Shown here piece by piece: positions 51,264-61,460 of a DNA stretch of 64,000 bases; the stretch's first letter is position 1; each line of letters begins with the position of its first letter. Position numbers and translations under genes: made by a program. The notes below the pieces were generated by a model, which saw only the letters and a list, made by a program, of their open reading frames with translations, searched no databases and was not told the DNA's origin. The stretch comes from a candidate division KSB3 bacterium (GTDB lineage Bacteria; Moduliflexota; Moduliflexia; Moduliflexales; Moduliflexaceae). The DNA lies in contig PDSJ01000014.1 in the NCBI GenBank assembly GCA_002748425.1, positions 128,021 through 192,020 of the forward strand. The letters run 5' to 3'.

Positions 51264-52265
51264 CTATTCCGTTGGGTAAAGTAGTTTGCTGATGTGTTGT
51301 ATGACTGGGCCGACCCCTTTGCCGCTGACTGCTGAAATCGCATAACACGGCATCTCTTCCTGTTCGCAAAAGTGTTTCAGTTGTTGGAGGCGCTTGTCAT
51401 CGCGCAATGCATCGAGTTTATTGGCAACGACAATTTGAGGCCGCCGGCATAAATCCGGATCGTATTGTTCCAGTTCAGTCGTGATCGTGACAAAGTCATC
51501 GATCGGATCGCGCTCGGTGTCAGAGGAGATATCGATCAAATGAACGAACATGCGCGTACGCTCGATGTGACGCAGGAATTGAAAACCGAGTCCTGTCCCG
51601 ACAGAAGCTCCTTCGATCAGACCAGGAATGTCGACCACAACAAAACTGCGATAATCCGATACCCGCACAACCCCTAAATTCGGAACAAGCGTGGTAAAGG
51701 GATAGTTCGCAATTTTTGGACGCGCTGCTGAAATTCTCGAAATCAGCGTTGACTTACCGACGTTTGGCAAGCCGATAATTCCCACATCAGCCAACAACTT
51801 TAATTCAAGTTGCAGGACACGTTCTTCTCCGGGCCATCCGGGCTCGGTACGCCGGGGTGCTTGATTCGTTGCAGATTTAAAACGAGCGTTCCCGCGTCCG
51901 CCGTCACCGCCCTTAGCAGCAAGAAACTGTTCATACGGCGTTGAAAGATCCGCCAGTAACTCACCACTCTCACGAAGTTTTACAATTGTACCCGGGGGAA
52001 TGCGAACGATCAAATCGTCAGCATTTTTCCCATGCTTGTTGCTGCCTTTGCCATGTGCTCCGCGTTCAGCCTTATATCGCCTTTTATAGCGGAGGTCCAC
52101 TAAGGTCGAGAGTTGAGGGTCCACTTCGAAAATAACATGGCCTCCACGACCACCGTCTCCGCCGTCCGGGCCACCTTGTGGGACAAATTTTTCTCGATGG
52201 AAGCTCAGACATCCATTGCCTCCATCACCGGCTTTGACCCGGATCTCTATTTCATCAATGAACAT
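51264..52265 (-). CDS. obg: GTPase ObgE/CgtA
   Basis: MFIDEIEIRVKAGDGGNGCLSFHREKFVPQGGPDGGDGGRGG Obg fold N-terminus, followed by G1-G4 GTPase motifs (GLPNVGKST, DIPGLIEGA, ANKLD). Confidence 0.92.
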   Translation of the reverse strand: MFIDEIEIRVKAGDGGNGCLSFHREKFVPQGGPDGGDGGRGGHVIFEVDPQLSTLVDLRYKRRYKAERGAHGKGSNKHGKNADDLIVRIPPGTIVKLRESGELLADLSTPYEQFLAAKGGDGGRGNARFKSATNQAPRRTEPGWPGEERVLQLELKLLADVGIIGLPNVGKSTLISRISAARPKIANYPFTTLVPNLGVVRVSDYRSFVVVDIPGLIEGASVGTGLGFQFLRHIERTRMFVHLIDISSDTERDPIDDFVTITTELEQYDPDLCRRPQIVVANKLDALRDDKRLQQLKHFCEQEEMPCYAISAVSGKGVGPVIQHISKLLYPTE

Positions 52266-52535
52266 TTACGCAGATTGCGCCACTTGCGGGCGGATATGGA
52301 TAAAACGCCGTCCTTTGCCTTTGTTGACAAACTCGACGACTCCGTCAACTTTTGCAAACAACGTATCATCTTTTCCCCGTCCGACATTGTTTCCTGGTTT
52401 GAAGACGGTGCCGCGCTGCCGCACCAGGATGCTTCCGCCGGTCACAAGCTGTCCGGCAAAACGTTTTACTCCCAGTCGCTTTGCATTGCTATCGCGTCCG
52501 TTCCGTGAGCTTCCGCCGCCTTTTTTATGTGCCAT
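52266..52535 (-). CDS. rpmA: 50S ribosomal protein bL27
   Basis: [26 protein letters not shown]… Stop codon abuts the obg start. Confidence 0.92.
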
Positions 52536-52561
52536 GGTTCCAGACTCCCTTCAATAATTTT

Positions 52562-52876
52562 TTATGCAGCTATGGCTTTAATTTTGATTGCCGTATAACG
52601 CTGACGATGACCTTGTTTTCGCTGATAATTCTTTTTTCGTTTATACTTAAAGACAATAATTTTTTTGGCTTTGCCCTGTTCGATCACTTCAGCAGTGACT
52701 GATGCGTTGTCGACATACGGATGGCCTACTTTGATCACATCGTCATCTGTTTTCACCAGCATCACTTTGTCGAACACGACTTCAGCACCAGGATCTGCAT
52801 GTAATGTATCGACCCGGATAATTTCACCTTCGGTGACTTTATGCTGTTTACCACCTGTTTCAATAACCGCGTACAC
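52562..52876 (-). CDS. rplU: 50S ribosomal protein bL21
   Basis: GTG start giving (M)[13 protein letters not shown]…. RBS GGAGGGAG 6 nt upstream. The ORF-track N-terminal extension was rejected. Confidence 0.85.
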
Positions 52877-53005
52877 GATAATCTCCCTCCAAAAGATTGA
52901 TATATCCTGCGCCTTTGTGGAAAAGGAGGCGCATGTCTGAAAACACAGGGCACGTAACACGCTGTCAAAAATTCTGTCAAGTCTTTTCTCGTTCCGATCT
53001 TTGCA

Positions 53006-56170: not shown

Positions 56171-57025
56171 TTAGAGAGCCTGACGATAGCCGAAGATATT
56201 CAGGTTCATATCGATTCCTGAGCGATCCGGGCAGGCCAGCAACGGTTGAGGAGCTGCAAATTGATTGTGAACATGGACTCTGAAACCTGCATATCTCAGT
56301 ACGCGCAGCAGTTCATCCAGCCTTTGCTCCTGCTTGCTGAAAGAGTGATATTCAACAAAAATATTTTCAACGCCTTCCAGCTGATCTTCGCAATCTAACA
56401 GAACTTCTGTTTCAGCACCCTCAATATCGATTTTTAAAAAATCGATTATTTTGTGCTCGATAAGATAATCCCGCAGGCGCACAGCAGACACCTGAATCAT
56501 GCGCTCCGACGCTGTTCCGGGGTTGCAAAGAATTCGTCCTCCGTCTGCTCCTTCTTGTAAGAAGGTCAGAGAGCTCTCTGAGATCCATAGAGCTTTATTG
56601 ACAAGATGGACATCGTGACAGTGAAAGCTTGTCAAGTTATGTTGAAGGATCTTGAAAAGCTCTGGATCCGCTTCAAACGAGATAATCTTGCTTTGAGGAT
56701 ACATGCGTTTGAAGTAAATTGTGCCGAGTCCCAGGTTGGCGCCGCAATCAAGAATGACAGGTTCCTGTTTGTCAGTCTTAAAGGCATAAATTTGATGGGA
56801 GATAATTTCTTGATAACTATAGAAGAACGATTTTCCATCAGGCACAATGAGCGGGGGGCCTAAAAGTGTTGTTGAGATTCGGCTGTAGCGTGGCTTTCGA
56901 CGAATCTTTTCTAACTGCCGGTAGCGCGGGCTTGCCATGTATGTAAGCCAATGTTTGAGATGAGGCATCATCTTAAACTGTTGCTGCGCCACCTTCGAAG
57001 GGTGTGAAAACAAAAAATTCATCAT
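56171..57025 (-). CDS. FkbM-family methyltransferase
   Basis: …VILDCGANLGLGTIYF… SAM-binding motif typical of FkbM-domain methyltransferases found in polysaccharide loci. Confidence 0.7.
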   Translation of the reverse strand: MMNFLFSHPSKVAQQQFKMMPHLKHWLTYMASPRYRQLEKIRRKPRYSRISTTLLGPPLIVPDGKSFFYSYQEIISHQIYAFKTDKQEPVILDCGANLGLGTIYFKRMYPQSKIISFEADPELFKILQHNLTSFHCHDVHLVNKALWISESSLTFLQEGADGGRILCNPGTASERMIQVSAVRLRDYLIEHKIIDFLKIDIEGAETEVLLDCEDQLEGVENIFVEYHSFSKQEQRLDELLRVLRYAGFRVHVHNQFAAPQPLLACPDRSGIDMNLNIFGYRQAL

Positions 57026-57106
57026 AAATCGAGTTTAATGAAATGTGATGGCCTCGTAAAAACTTCACGCGGCCATTTTACACAGAAACCCTCACCCATC
57101 TTCTGT

Positions 57107-57532
57107 TCAGGAAGTCAGTTGATCGATTCCGCTGATTTTGTACACTACCGCGCCTTCTTCCAAATCATCGTCAGATATTCGGGCATAGCCCTTTTGCACC
57201 AAATTCGCCAGAATAATTTCAGCAGTTTCAAGCGTGATATTCAGGGCGATTGAAAGGGATGGCGCTGTCAGTTCACCTTTTTGCGTGCTGGCAAATAGCA
57301 ATGCTTCACGAACAGGAAGTTTATACGTAGAAAGCAACGCGACGACACCGCCAATAATGAAAGGCGTTCCCAGGGCAAAGGCCCAGGGACCGGTTAACCA
57401 GATCGGAAATCTCCAGCCGGCGTCAAGATAAGTGATACCTCCCAGCAAAATCGCTCCCCAACTATACATTTTCCGTCTTCTACGACGAAGGTTGAGGCGT
57501 TTAACATATTCAAGAGTTGAGGTCTGTGGCAT
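57107..57532 (-). CDS. small membrane protein with soluble C-terminal domain (hypothetical)
   Basis: Two or three predicted TM helices followed by a ~50-aa helical soluble tail. Immediately downstream of the SPFH gene, possibly an NfeD-like partner. Not recognised by motif. Confidence 0.35.
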   Translation of the reverse strand: MPQTSTLEYVKRLNLRRRRRKMYSWGAILLGGITYLDAGWRFPIWLTGPWAFALGTPFIIGGVVALLSTYKLPVREALLFASTQKGELTAPSLSIALNITLETAEIILANLVQKGYARISDDDLEEGAVVYKISGIDQLTS

Positions 57533-57696
57533 AATAAAGTATTTAAAACAACGAGATTTAAAACAACGAGCTAAAAAACTCTGATTTCCTTTTTCAGAAG
57601 CAAGAGCCCGCTTTTCGCAGCCGCCTGCATCTTAGAATACAAGCTGTATGCAGAGGCCGCCCAGCAGAGCTGCCACCGCATACATCCAGCTAAGGA

Positions 57697-59853
57697 TTAT
57701 TGCTTTGCAGGTTGAGGTTCTTCCTCAGAAGTTACCATGTGTTGAATCTGGAGTTGTTTTGCAACCATCAGGTTCAGCATATTTAAAATATCAGCAATCG
57801 AACCCGACAAATTGCTTCCGGCTGTACCGGTCATTCCGCCGCCGCCGACAATCATATCTGGAACCCATTTTTGTTTCCCAATTTCTGATGCAAAGCGAGT
57901 CATAACGTCTTTGTAAATATTCAAACGTAATTCTTCCAAATTATCAGCCTTGATCAAAAGTTCACGCCGCCTGGCTTCACCTTCGCCAAGTGCAATTTGT
58001 TTCAATTTTTCCTGCTCTGCCGCTTCTTTTTCTAACTTCGCAACTTCCAGACCCTGCTGGCCTTTGATAATGGCAACCTGTTTTTGTTCTTCAGCCTTGG
58101 TTTCCGCGACAATCTTAGCGGTTTCAGCTTTGATTTTCTGGCTTTGCTGCTCTACCAGAGCCTTCTGTCTTGCTAATTTGGCCTGTTCTTCTTCCCGTTT
58201 CTGCTCTTCGATATATTGCTCTTTTTGTTTCTCGGCAATCTCTTTCTGGCGAATCGGTTTTAGCAGATTTTCAGGAATCGTATAATTTCTGACAAAGGTA
58301 TTCACTATATTGATTTTAGCTCTGGCTCCTTCTAACTGAAGGGCATTGGAAAGTTTATCCTGGAAGCTTTTGCGGGTGCTGCCGCTGACAAACTCAACCG
58401 CTTTCAGCATTGAGCCTTCAAGACGGGCAAATGAACGGGAACCAGGACGAATAATCTTGGTTTTCACATCATCTAAATTTTGCCCCAAGGTTGCCACGAC
58501 ATAAGGCGCATTTTCCGGTTGGATCTCATATAACACGGTTACATCGACGGCGATCTCAAATCCATCATTGGAAAGGAAAAGGATTTCATCTGAAAATGCC
58601 GTATCCCCTTGATTTTTAACTGATGTCATTTCATATTTCTGTTTTCTGGTATCCACTTTGACAACATCGAATTCATAGGGGTTAATCGGATAAAGCCCTG
58701 GTTTCAGATAATCTTTACGGACTCCCTGAAAACCTTCATCAACCAGCAGTTCAGCGCCTGGAGAAATTTTTCCGGTTCTGGCAATCAAAACTCCTACATG
58801 CCCATCAGGGATAGAAATAATCTCATGCTTCTCAACATCAAATTCATAGGGATTGACATAATGCATACCAGGTTCCAGCACTTCTCTGATAATGCCCTGA
58901 AAATTACTGTCGCGTTCTACCAGCATGGTTCCCGGAGGCGGTGAGTCGCCAACTTTTCTGGTTTGCACTCCGATTTTACCGGCTGGAATCGTGATCGCTT
59001 CTTCTATTTTCCAACTATACACTTTCGGATGTAAATATTGCATCCCAGGTTTTAACACTTCCCGGATAATACCGCGATAATTGCTGTCCCAGGAAACCAG
59101 GCGTTGTCCGTGAGGCGCGGTTTCACCCAGTTTTCGAGTAACAACACCAACCTTACCGGCGGGAATGTCAAGCGCGTCAACAACCTCCCAACTGTAAATT
59201 TTAGGATGAAGATACTGAATCCCCGGTTCAAGTACTTCCCGAATAGCACCGCGATAATTACTATCCATCGGAACGAGAATTTGGCCTGGAGGCGGGGACT
59301 CTCCAATCTTTCTGGTTAGCACCCCGATCTTTCCAAATTCGATGTTCAGAGCATCGGCAAGCTGAACGTCAAAATAATCGGTATTGATCGGATATTTCCC
59401 TGGTTTGAGAAAACTTTTTCGAATCCCTTTTTGTCCCATTTTAATTAATTCACCAGTTTCAGCATTAATTTCATCATCATCGGCAAGTACAGCGCCTTTC
59501 GGCAATTCTTCTCCATCTTTAGCGACAAGCACCGCCACTTTCCCTTCAGGAACCTCTGTCATATTCACTTGCTTAATGTCTACAAAGGCTGTAGTTTTCC
59601 AGAAAAAATGCAAACCTGGCAGAAGAACCTCCCGTTGAGTCCCCTTGTAGCCTTTTTCCACAATAAAATGCCCTGCAGGATCAGGATTTCCGCTTTTATA
59701 AAACACAATTCCGACCTTTCCGGAGTCAATCGTCACGGCGCAAAGCCCCCACAAAAAACCAACTAAAACAAGAATAAGCGCCCCGATTATTAAAAACGGG
59801 ATAATCGTTTTCAATGGCTTATAAGAAGCGGGTTCTCCAGAACTGTTACTCAT
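57697..59853 (-). CDS. SPFH/band-7 (flotillin-like) membrane protein with five N-terminal tandem ~65-aa repeats
   Basis: N-terminal TM. Five repeats of the unit GK(V/I)GV.TRK.GE..P.GQ.LV..DSNYRG.IREVL.PG.QYLHPK.Y. Then an SPFH core and a flotillin-type E/K/Q-rich coiled coil (…EKQKEQYIEEQKREEEQAKLARQKALVEQQ…). RBS GGAGGAG. Confidence 0.65.
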   Translation of the reverse strand: MSNSSGEPASYKPLKTIIPFLIIGALILVLVGFLWGLCAVTIDSGKVGIVFYKSGNPDPAGHFIVEKGYKGTQREVLLPGLHFFWKTTAFVDIKQVNMTEVPEGKVAVLVAKDGEELPKGAVLADDDEINAETGELIKMGQKGIRKSFLKPGKYPINTDYFDVQLADALNIEFGKIGVLTRKIGESPPPGQILVPMDSNYRGAIREVLEPGIQYLHPKIYSWEVVDALDIPAGKVGVVTRKLGETAPHGQRLVSWDSNYRGIIREVLKPGMQYLHPKVYSWKIEEAITIPAGKIGVQTRKVGDSPPPGTMLVERDSNFQGIIREVLEPGMHYVNPYEFDVEKHEIISIPDGHVGVLIARTGKISPGAELLVDEGFQGVRKDYLKPGLYPINPYEFDVVKVDTRKQKYEMTSVKNQGDTAFSDEILFLSNDGFEIAVDVTVLYEIQPENAPYVVATLGQNLDDVKTKIIRPGSRSFARLEGSMLKAVEFVSGSTRKSFQDKLSNALQLEGARAKINIVNTFVRNYTIPENLLKPIRQKEIAEKQKEQYIEEQKREEEQAKLARQKALVEQQSQKIKAETAKIVAETKAEEQKQVAIIKGQQGLEVAKLEKEAAEQEKLKQIALGEGEARRRELLIKADNLEELRLNIYKDVMTRFASEIGKQKWVPDMIVGGGGMTGTAGSNLSGSIADILNMLNLMVAKQLQIQHMVTSEEEPQPAKQ

Positions 59854-60212
59854 AATAGACTCCTCCTTAAATTGAATACATTTGAGTTAACAACACAAAT
59901 AACACAGGCAATTAACTGCTGAACGTTAAAGTAAGATAATTTGTTTAACCTGTCAAACAATTACTTTACAAAAAAGCTGAAATATTGATACAGATTCAGG
60001 ACTCATCCCTGTGGGTGTTTTCCCCATGAATGGTCTTGAAATTATGGGGATAATACTAATAGTGTTACCAACAATACGCAACCAAAAAAGAGATGTTATT
60101 TCGTTAAATTAGCATCTTAAGCAATACATCTTTTTACGAGTCCATCAACTGTGAGAAGATTTCTCTAACGCTGCCTGGAGTTTCTTTCTCTGAGCTGTCA
60201 AGTTCATCTTCC

Positions 60213-61460
60213 CTATAGTGGAGATTTTGGTCCGAGAACCTCTCGAATAGAGGCATCAAGTTCTTCGGCCCTGATGTCAAATGTGTGACTTTTCAGGGTT
60301 CGCCGCTGACCAGCTTCGGCAATTTGACGCCGTTCTCCGTCGTGTGATAAAAGATATCGCACTTTTTCAGCGATTTCCTCTGGACGGTGATAGGTCACAA
60401 CTTCCACATCTGGCTCAAAGATTTCATGCAGGTTCGGCTGCCATTCGGTGAGTAAGCACGTCCCAACTCCTGTGGCTTCGTAGAGCCGCATATTCGATGC
60501 AGACTGGCTTGCAAGGTCGATATGCGTATTGAGGGTGATTTTTGATTCGTACAGTTGTTGATACATCTTTAGTCCATACAGAGGAGGATGTGACTGCTTG
60601 ACAATCTCGGGGTCTATGACTCCCCGGGCTTCCGGGCGATAATTCATCTCCGCATAGTGTTGCAGTTTAGGGTGAGCGCGTAGGACATTCCATCCGGCTG
60701 GAAGGCGTTTTAGACATTGTACAGCGTCATAGGCGAATTGTCTGATCGGCCAGACCCACTGATGGGGCTGAGGCGGATTCGACGTCTCGATCCAAAGCTG
60801 TATGTCTGTGCTTCGGATGAGTTCTCGTAAAATAGCTTCGCGTGTCTTATGGAAGTCGGAGTGCTTTACGATCGAACCTAAAAATGAAAAGTCAACGGCA
60901 TTCTCTGTTGCGGAGTTGATTTTTTTTAAAATTCGGGGATCAAAAGCATGTCGCATGTATTTGCAACAGTATCCTTTTTGTTGGAAATGCTCGACTAATT
61001 CAGGGATATTGGAGAGAACGATGTCATAGGCTTTAAAGACGCTCCCATCCACGTATGGCGCACCGCACCATCCGAGTATGAGACGAATGGACGGGCACTC
61101 TCTTTTAAGATGGCGAAAAAAATCTGCGCTGTACGTCCGATAATCATTGACAAAGAGGATGTCAGGCTGGAAAAATTTCACTTGAGCAGTAAGAATATCG
61201 GTCATCCAGCGTGTTCGGCGATACGGAGCGGCATATTCTTCAGCCCATTTTTTTTGCATTCGTTCTGCATTGCCCACCAGTTCCCAAACTTCATATCGCA
61301 GCTTCCCTAGCGCGTGAGTCCAAAAGTCTGCCCAGCCATAACAATCTGAGGCAAGCGTCTGGTATTGAACGAGATAGGGCTTATCGTGTAATTCTGGAGT
61401 ATTCTCATAAAATTGTTGAAGATAGCCCGGGGCATTAGTGCTGATACGAATTAGACGCAT
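60213..61460 (-). CDS. CgeB-family / GT1-like protein (polysaccharide locus)
   Basis: C-terminal region (…GVGTCLLTEWQPNLHEIFEPDVEVVTYHRPEEIAEKVRYLLSHDGERRQIAEAGQRR…) resembles the CgeB/Glyco_trans_1_2 family. Confidence 0.5.
   Translation of the reverse strand: MRLIRISTNAPGYLQQFYENTPELHDKPYLVQYQTLASDCYGWADFWTHALGKLRYEVWELVGNAERMQKKWAEEYAAPYRRTRWMTDILTAQVKFFQPDILFVNDYRTYSADFFRHLKRECPSIRLILGWCGAPYVDGSVFKAYDIVLSNIPELVEHFQQKGYCCKYMRHAFDPRILKKINSATENAVDFSFLGSIVKHSDFHKTREAILRELIRSTDIQLWIETSNPPQPHQWVWPIRQFAYDAVQCLKRLPAGWNVLRAHPKLQHYAEMNYRPEARGVIDPEIVKQSHPPLYGLKMYQQLYESKITLNTHIDLASQSASNMRLYEATGVGTCLLTEWQPNLHEIFEPDVEVVTYHRPEEIAEKVRYLLSHDGERRQIAEAGQRRTLKSHTFDIRAEELDASIREVLGPKSPL

Follow-up and report, generated by a model that had tools for sequence, protein, structure and literature searches.

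The window analysed here is a 64,000-nucleotide stretch of the contig PDSJ01000014.1, from a candidate division KSB3 bacterium. On its reverse strand lies the gene that is the subject of this report, which encodes an SPFH protein of 718 aa with an array of six tandem units behind an N-terminal membrane anchor (Table 1). The exact protein sequence is present in public records as PID57829.1 / PIE30255.1 (CSB45_06305, ‘hypothetical protein', candidate division KSB3 bacterium), as UniRef100_A0A2G6E6W8 (‘Band 7 domain-containing protein') and in one Logan assembly entry. A Pfam search matched Band_7 (PF01145) to aa 347–554 with 84.9 bits against a gathering cutoff of 23.6; at E ≤ 0.01 this was the sole family returned for the protein, with no match to a flotillin family. 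No NCBIfam model scored above its cutoff, no PADLOC defence model matched, and matches among the PHROGs were limited to generic phage SPFH families, on the core.

The layout of the protein was read from hydropathy and from an AlphaFold model built from 60 sequences (mean predicted local distance difference test, pLDDT, 75.8). An earlier note on this DNA, made from the letters alone, had claimed a transmembrane (TM) anchor at the N-terminus, and this is confirmed: the 19-aa window at aa 16–34 has a mean Kyte–Doolittle hydropathy of 2.85, AlphaFold places a helix at aa 17–38, and a TM segment opens 116/121 sequences (the query and 120 homologues). The same note had stated that a full SPFH core and a flotillin-like coiled coil follow the repeats, and the Band_7 match and the model bear out the core and the long helices, with helices at 528–611 (84 residues), 615–623, 625–636 and 638–658 in the C-terminal half. 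Hydropathy, AlphaFold and Foldseek together give the order membrane anchor, SPFH1, SPFH2 and long coiled-coil (CC) helices that characterizes SPFH/Band 7 proteins. Behind the helices, the C-terminal KWVPDM..GG motif is conserved among homologues, P665 being invariant and G670 conserved in at least 90%.

Table 1. Features of the SPFH gene and its downstream neighbour, in window coordinates.
Feature	Position	Strand	Basis and remarks
Multi-SPFH1 SPFH protein gene, 718 aa	57697..59853	-	Open reading frame list; Band_7 84.9 bits; exact sequence in NCBI, UniRef and Logan
Shine-Dalgarno AAGGAGG	59862..59868	-	8 nt 5' of ATG; read from upstream sequence; strong
N-terminal transmembrane anchor, aa 16–38	59740..59808	-	Hydropathy and AlphaFold helix
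U1, aa 42–100, membrane-proximal SPFH1-like module	59554..59730	-	Band_7 N-terminus E 0.02; pLDDT 87–92; type kept as first unit family-wide
U2, aa 101–170	59344..59553	-	70 aa with 11-residue insertion; 47% identical to U6; type amplified in cyanobacterial and Geomonas relatives
U3, aa 171–229	59167..59343	-	64% aa identity with U4, z 41
U4, aa 230–288	58990..59166	-	Unit comparison; extra U3/U4-type copy separating six-unit from five-unit relatives
U5, aa 289–347	58813..58989	-	54% identity to U3 and to U4, 42% to U6
U6, aa 348–410, canonical SPFH1 opening the Band_7 domain	58624..58812	-	Pfam match starts at aa 347; alone matches Band_7 positions 3–47, E 3e-4
SPFH2 alpha/beta core, aa 411–527	58273..58623	-	Band_7 match to aa 554; AlphaFold strands 424–443, helices 446–511, strand 515–525
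Long E/K/Q/A-rich helices, aa 528–658, equivalent to CC1/CC2 or vault cap helix	57880..58272	-	AlphaFold; hhalign
C-terminal region, aa 659–718, KWVPDM..GG motif, then low-confidence tail	57700..57879	-	Conservation; pLDDT <50
Conserved downstream partner gene, 141 aa, CSB45_06300	57107..57532	-	Arginine-rich N-terminus, two TM helices, C-terminal winged helix (predicted)

A GK[VI]G[VI] anchor motif recurs at aa 45, 104, 174, 233, 292 and 351 and delimits six units with a period of 59 aa (177 nt), to which U2, at 70 aa, is the exception. All 15 pairs of units are similar far above chance (Smith–Waterman z 5.8–41; 0/300 shuffles reach the observed score), with aa identities of 26–64%. At the DNA level, autocorrelation over 58740–59400 gave a single sharp peak at 177 nt (57% identity, z 7.9; background 0.27 ± 0.04) and no signal at 195 nt (0.277). 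The earlier note had described five tandem repeats of about 65 aa with a 195-nt periodicity over this interval; the periodicity is real and five is the correct number of extra copies, but the total is six and both the unit length and the period were overestimated. We count five extra copies and one native copy because U6 is simply where the Band_7 domain normally begins.

The copies are not recent. Among U3–U5, DNA identity is 58–64%, with identities of about 0.66, 0.86 and 0.39 at the three codon positions, and the third positions (36–39%) are near saturation; from these values, the unit duplications are judged to be old and under purifying selection. Over 57000–60500, Tandem Repeats Finder reported no array inside the SPFH gene, a result that fits old, diverged copies and does not count against the repeats.

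Every SPFH domain begins with a small beta module, SPFH1. Positions 3–47 of the Band_7 model are matched by U1 (E 0.02), by U6 (E 3e-4) and by the U1–U5 block (E 6e-5), and a profile of 45 diverse units, compared with the sequences of the PDB, had a sole match at a marginal E of 0.03, to prohibitin-1 residues 40–70, which is the SPFH1 segment. U6 itself is 42% identical to U5 and 47% identical to U2. These sequence comparisons establish the units as homologous to each other and to SPFH1, and the suggestion in the earlier note that each unit resembles the first strands of an SPFH domain was well founded. The 718-aa protein as a single query found nothing significant among PDB sequences (E ≥ 0.025), and the best match of the family profile there, erlin at E 0.01, was not significant.

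In the AlphaFold model, the TM helix is followed by six all-beta units, each with about five short strands (most distinct in U1), then by the alpha/beta core (411–527), the helices (528–658) and a disordered tail; most of the repeat array has pLDDT >85. When the model was compared with the PDB by Foldseek, the top 11 matches were all full-length major vault protein (MVP), with E from 2.6e-13 to 4e-10 over 730–850 aligned columns. The next tier comprised prohibitin, erlin, HflK/C, stomatin, QmcA and flotillin (E 4e-10 to 1e-5), mostly over ~335 columns, within a range of ~180–440. An R1–R7 fragment of MVP, from crystal structures of the repeats without shoulder or cap, also matches, over ~400 columns at E 1.4e-5. 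At the level of predicted fold, both the whole chain and the repeat array alone match MVP, with tandem beta repeats that are followed by an SPFH-like shoulder and a cap helix. The earlier note had rightly judged the layout to be unlike that of flotillin or YqiK; what it missed is that the layout is the one of MVP.

The likeness to MVP (for example PDB 4V60, 9Z4W and 9BW5) runs through the chain as modelled, from an SPFH1-type beta array to an SPFH-like alpha/beta domain, a long helix and a C-terminal closure. The differences are equally plain. MVP has nine repeats and no membrane anchor, and its two half-shells are joined at their N-termini, whereas the KSB3 protein has six units and a TM N-terminus; the soluble, free N-terminus that MVP places at the waist between two half-vaults is here, as in the 116 sequences counted above, a TM helix. 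Sequence similarity to MVP is confined to the coiled coil, and the core of the KSB3 protein is an ordinary Band_7 domain. The vault has been described as the exception so far among SPFH complexes, without membrane association (PMC12624060), and it alone among SPFH cages combines many SPFH1 modules with no membrane (PMC11348225, PMC12624060).

The protein belongs to a large family. A search with the whole protein returned 311 relatives with 3–7 units by hidden Markov model (HMM) count, and a search with the repeat region (aa 42–347), covering 1.84 billion cluster representatives, returned at least 761 clusters at E ≤ 1e-3, and 329 at E ≤ 1e-10, with 2–15 units by HMM count. The nearest genome is that of Bacterium UASB270 (KSB3, listed as Candidatus Vecturithrix granuli), whose homologue has five units and 61% identity. 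Five units are also found in members from Desulfobacterales, including cable bacteria and Desulfonema, and seven in Geomonas species; filamentous cyanobacteria (Symploca, Iningainema, Okeania) carry 8–15 units, followed by Band_7. In Planctomycetota, Lentisphaerota, Chlamydiota and their relatives, the family occurs as two adjacent paralogues of ~540 aa with three units each (loci L014–L048 and L056, for instance L056 6001–9401). Such adjacent pairs recall the hflK–hflC or flotillin-1/2 pairs that form hetero-oligomeric cages. The public names of the relatives are ‘hypothetical', ‘SPFH domain-containing', ‘VWA domain-containing', ‘HflC' and ‘YqiK'.

Typing of the units showed that the U1 type is kept as the first unit, and the U6 type as the last, across the family. 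The KSB3 clade amplified the U3–5 type, since its five-unit proteins lack one U3/U4-type copy and one seven-unit protein has one more, whereas it is the 70–72-aa U2 type that expanded in other clades. This pattern indicates that the clades multiplied their internal units independently of one another. The earlier note had proposed that variation in copy number among related genomes would point to recent expansion; the variation is there, and the copies in this protein are old.

Several relatives extend or modify the architecture. Five proteins of 1,259–1,802 aa (P0121, P0125, P0126, P0130 and P0131) have 8–15 units, Band_7 and a C-terminal VWA domain with a DxSxS motif, so that their arrays can outnumber the nine repeats of MVP; P0125 and P0131 are from named hosts, Symploca and Iningainema. 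For P0140, from Okeania, nine units and Band_7 were found, and no VWA match was returned. P0255 ends in a CHAT protease domain and P0191 in a Cys4 zinc ribbon; in P0197, two TM segments precede the array, and the stretch between them matches PG_binding_1 below threshold. P0138, P0140 and P0143 begin at unit 1 without a TM segment and may be truncated gene calls or soluble forms. A five-unit homologue with 40% identity, most like the Desulfobacterales proteins, lies in a metagenome-assembled genome labelled ‘Nanoarchaeota archaeon' (locus L003, JAHIPG010000324.1); this placement is probably a binning error rather than a sign of an archaeal member.

Beyond the domain order, the age of the copies and the wide 2–15-unit family, all of which are shown by the data above, we considered what the protein might build by analogy with structurally solved SPFH proteins that have such helices, namely HflK/C, flotillin, prohibitin, erlin, stomatin, QmcA and MVP. 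On that analogy, the protein is probably one of the subunits from which a tall vault-like SPFH cage, capped by the membrane, is built, with its SPFH1 module multiplied to six copies. Many protomers would pack side by side into a ring, as those of the solved proteins do, and the stacked SPFH1 modules would form a tall beta wall of roughly 2 nm per unit, an estimate based on vault dimensions. The long helices would converge into a dome, with the conserved C-terminal KWVPDM..GG motif, which we take to resemble the dome-closing region of other SPFH cages, as its closure. The product would be a ‘half-vault' shut at its base by the membrane. It would enclose a lumen together with a patch of membrane, and the number of units would determine how tall it is. 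A two-TM protein with a predicted winged helix, encoded immediately downstream in KSB3 genomes, may be a client or partner of the cage.

A number of observations weigh against this reading. No Vault (PF01505, PF17794-6) or MVP_shoulder (PF11978) model of Pfam matched the protein, its units or its repeat block, even at E ≤ 10, and these models matched 0/45 multi-unit relatives, whereas true MVPs carry all five. When the unit profile was compared by hhalign with an alignment of vertebrate MVP, gathered with a human MVP query that is 100% identical to a database MVP, the probability was 0.2%; the only part of the protein that aligned was 63 coiled-coil columns, aa 549–611 with the MVP cap helix (probability 62%, E 7.6e-5). 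By sequence, the protein is not a member of the MVP family. Global TM-scores are also low (0.14–0.24; to MVP 0.14–0.21), as expected for long flexible jointed rods, and the fold match rests for this reason on local scores. Within the model, pLDDT drops to 56–75 over aa 181–250. Finally, hints of topology conflict as to whether the bulk of the protein lies outside the cytoplasm or within it.

Counts of Lys and Arg, at 2.46 before the TM segment versus 1.56 after it (68 versus 22 proteins), favour an N-terminus inside and the bulk outside, although the positive-inside rule is weak here, where the stretch after the TM segment is a folded domain. For distant branches of the family, the cytoplasm is suggested by the cyanobacterial members, in which a signal-peptide-like N-terminus is followed by a second TM segment and then by Lys and Arg, and by other relatives, through the C-terminal Cys4 zinc ribbon or CHAT domain and, in one, the sub-threshold PG_binding_1 match between two TM segments. 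A bulk placed outside would moreover be hard to accommodate under the peptidoglycan, because six modules of ~2 nm each, together with the core and the dome, would exceed 20 nm if the vault dimensions apply. On balance, we lean towards a protein whose bulk is cytoplasmic rather than outside.

The beta array could instead be a rigid spacer or stalk in a protein that works as a monomer or small oligomer or forms an open arc, the array holding the SPFH/coiled-coil head at a set distance from the membrane or providing a surface for binding. Copy numbers that vary from 2 to 15 would also fit a molecular ruler, and the effector-like VWA or CHAT domains that some relatives add at the C-terminus are of a kind that a stalk might present. 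However, all solved SPFH proteins with CC helices are closed or nearly closed rings, MVP employs exactly such arrays as its wall, and the conserved KWVPDM..GG motif presumably resembles a dome-closing region; we therefore regard a stalk as unlikely. Still less probable, in our view, is that the protein is a true MVP orthologue, either a bacterial ancestor of MVP or a transfer from eukaryotes, that forms free vaults. Its best structural match is indeed full-length MVP, and earlier reports describe bacterial MVP-like proteins with a band 7 domain (PMC3762200; bioRxiv 10.1101/872010) and Asgard homologues with five repeats (PMC12962969). Yet the core matches the generic Band_7 in place of any Vault or MVP_shoulder model, profile–profile comparison detects similarity in the coiled coil alone, and the very N-terminus at which the halves of a vault meet is a TM helix in this protein. 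In addition, nothing is closer to the units than the SPFH1 of the same protein, and the unit type that was amplified differs between clades, which argues for repeated, independent expansion. An assembly artefact, whether a collapsed or an expanded tandem repeat, was raised in the earlier note as the finding that would undo the repeats, and we consider its probability to be practically nil: the copies, as given above, are too diverged in DNA to confuse an assembler, the reading frame is intact, the identical protein occurs in two NCBI records and in Logan, and thirteen six-unit proteins with 67–75% identity come from other samples.

The genomic context had led the earlier note to a different proposal, a flotillin/YqiK-type scaffold for the surrounding polysaccharide or envelope machinery, with an NfeD-like partner. 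Pfam confirms its description of the locus: GT2, GT4 and FkbM methyltransferase genes lie on one side, and a Glyco_trans_1_2 (CgeB-like) glycosyltransferase gene and an asparagine synthase gene on the other, mostly on the same strand, and the SPFH gene is followed by a small gene for a membrane protein, as SPFH genes often are by nfeD. The role in exopolysaccharide (EPS) synthesis drawn from this context is not supported, and we consider it highly unlikely. The co-occurrence with EPS loci that the note had proposed to check was not seen: none of the window's FkbM, GT4, CgeB-like and AsnB genes was found within 10 kb of the SPFH gene in the 49 related loci (the closest genome and 48 others). 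Relatives with 73–74% identity sit among unrelated genes, for diaminopimelate, sugar catabolism, ABC transporters and chemotaxis, and the neighbourhoods in Desulfobacterales and in the Planctomycetota–Verrucomicrobiota–Chlamydiota (PVC) group differ again. Because the polysaccharide context is not conserved among relatives, the EPS role is left without support. It is further disfavoured by the Pfam result, with Band_7 and no flotillin family, and by the small partner, which has no NfeD match and is predicted to form a winged helix, not an OB fold.

Returning to the proposed membrane-capped, vault-like cage, we compared it with the systems that it most resembles. Flotillin, YqiK and FloT share with the KSB3 protein membrane association, an SPFH core and a long charged helical region, and its glycine-rich C-terminal motif is presumably similar to that of Escherichia coli YqiK. 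Flotillins have one SPFH1 module, as opposed to six here, and the arrangement of a single SPFH1–SPFH2 unit followed by a flotillin repeat region is not the one found; among the Foldseek matches, flotillin (E 8e-7 or weaker) comes far behind MVP, prohibitin and erlin. HflK/C, the periplasmic cage that regulates FtsH, has the same succession of N-terminal TM segment, SPFH1, SPFH2 and CC. Many relatives are labelled ‘HflC' by the Joint Genome Institute, and the adjacent paralogues of the PVC relatives are comparable with hflK–hflC. It differs from the KSB3 protein with its six SPFH1 modules, which scores 13.7 bits against a cutoff of 427 with the NCBIfam HflC equivalog NF008259; no linkage to ftsH or hflX was seen in the loci examined. 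SPFH–NfeD operons (for example QmcA–YbbJ, PDB 8Z5G) likewise have a small membrane-protein gene after the SPFH gene, on the same strand and conserved within a lineage, whereas the KSB3 partner is without an NfeD domain, has a predicted winged helix in place of the OB fold and occurs in KSB3-like genomes only.

Prokaryotic vault-like proteins are not new as an idea, because they have been reported in bacteria from 2013 on (PMC3762200; bioRxiv 10.1101/872010) and in Asgard archaea in a 2026 report of MVP homologues with five repeats (PMC12962969); the latter describes the prokaryotic ancestry of the vault as unclear. The reported set includes Saprospira H6L4P8, the Herpetosiphon ‘band 7 protein' A9AUD4 and proteins of Myxococcales and Cytophagales. 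They combine repeats, a band-7-like shoulder and a coiled coil in prokaryotic hosts, several of them filamentous or gliding, which is the likeness to the family treated here. They were found through their similarity to MVP and are not presented as membrane-anchored in the accessible text of these sources, and it is by these descriptions that the KSB3 protein family, with its TM helix and no MVP sequence signal, is set apart from them. Within the literature collection that could be searched, we found no description of a widespread TM-anchored, Band_7-positive, Vault-negative family with 2–15 SPFH1 modules.

Since 2022, structures of SPFH cages have appeared in succession, among them those of HflK/C, flotillin, prohibitin, erlin and stomatin. 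In the present family, an array of the vault type is found together with a classical TM anchor and an ordinary Band_7 core, and its repeats are still recognizable as copies of the protein's own SPFH1. A broader interpretation, which we offer tentatively and regard as somewhat doubtful, is that bacteria build membrane-anchored ‘half-vaults' whose wall is lengthened by 2–15 SPFH1 copies that set the height of the compartment, and that the family is a missing intermediate between SPFH membrane cages and the free eukaryotic vault. If so, the eukaryotic vault would have originated when the anchor was lost and two such cups paired. The range of 2–15 copies offers a natural series in which to follow how SPFH1 arrays might build a wall, how height might scale with unit number and how a vault-like shell might derive from a membrane cage. 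Cultured hosts make the family accessible to experiment: Geomonas subterranea and G. oryzae have seven units, and Tautonia sociabilis has paired three-unit paralogues.

Some further features of the SPFH gene and its surroundings were noted. A cysteine stands at the end of the TM helix, just ahead of U1 (59740–59745, aa 37–38), and recurs as LWGLC, LWSLC, YVMC or WLNC in many proteins of the KSB3 clade. Scans for promoters and terminators around the SPFH gene and the small downstream gene were uninformative. In four KSB3-like relatives (L001 8810–9169, L050, L052 and L053, including Bacterium UASB270), a gene for a 129-aa membrane protein with a NusG_II domain (PF07009) lies divergently upstream. 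This gene is absent from the whole 64-kb window, where the glycosyltransferase cluster has thus interrupted synteny. Directly adjoining that cluster, at 51264–52960 on the reverse strand, are the housekeeping genes obg, rpmA (L27) and rplU (L21).

The small gene downstream of the SPFH gene is conserved in this position within the KSB3 lineage. Bacterium UASB270 has a copy directly downstream that is 67% identical, and the contigs of three further relatives have it in the same place; 38 homologues with at least 55% identity lie on contigs equal in size to those of SPFH homologues, and the family is confined to KSB3-like genomes. The earlier note had proposed an NfeD-like partner here, and the open reading frame as well as its standing as a conserved neighbour on the same strand are upheld. 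The NfeD domain, which we take to be PF01957 with a C-terminal OB-fold beta barrel, is not what the protein contains: there was no Pfam or NCBIfam match and no NfeD signal, and AlphaFold gives its C-terminal part the order H-E-H-H-E-E (helices H, strands E) of a winged helix. The best Foldseek matches, to the winged helices of ArsR/CadC, MarR and eS25, are all weak (E ≥ 0.012). The loop that joins its two TM helices is highly conserved. Of the proteins that the SPFH protein might act with in KSB3, this two-TM protein with its predicted winged helix is the likeliest client or partner.

In the NCBI record, the small gene begins at Met22 and its product has 120 aa. The 141-aa start used here is more likely, since the 21 residues upstream of Met22 (LEYVK.LN.RR..) are conserved in >30 relatives. 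Just 5' of its start codon, at 57541–57570, lies a perfect 15-bp tandem duplication (ATTTAAAACAACGAG x2, + strand), which is not conserved in relatives; there, a GC-rich hairpin is found instead between the two genes.

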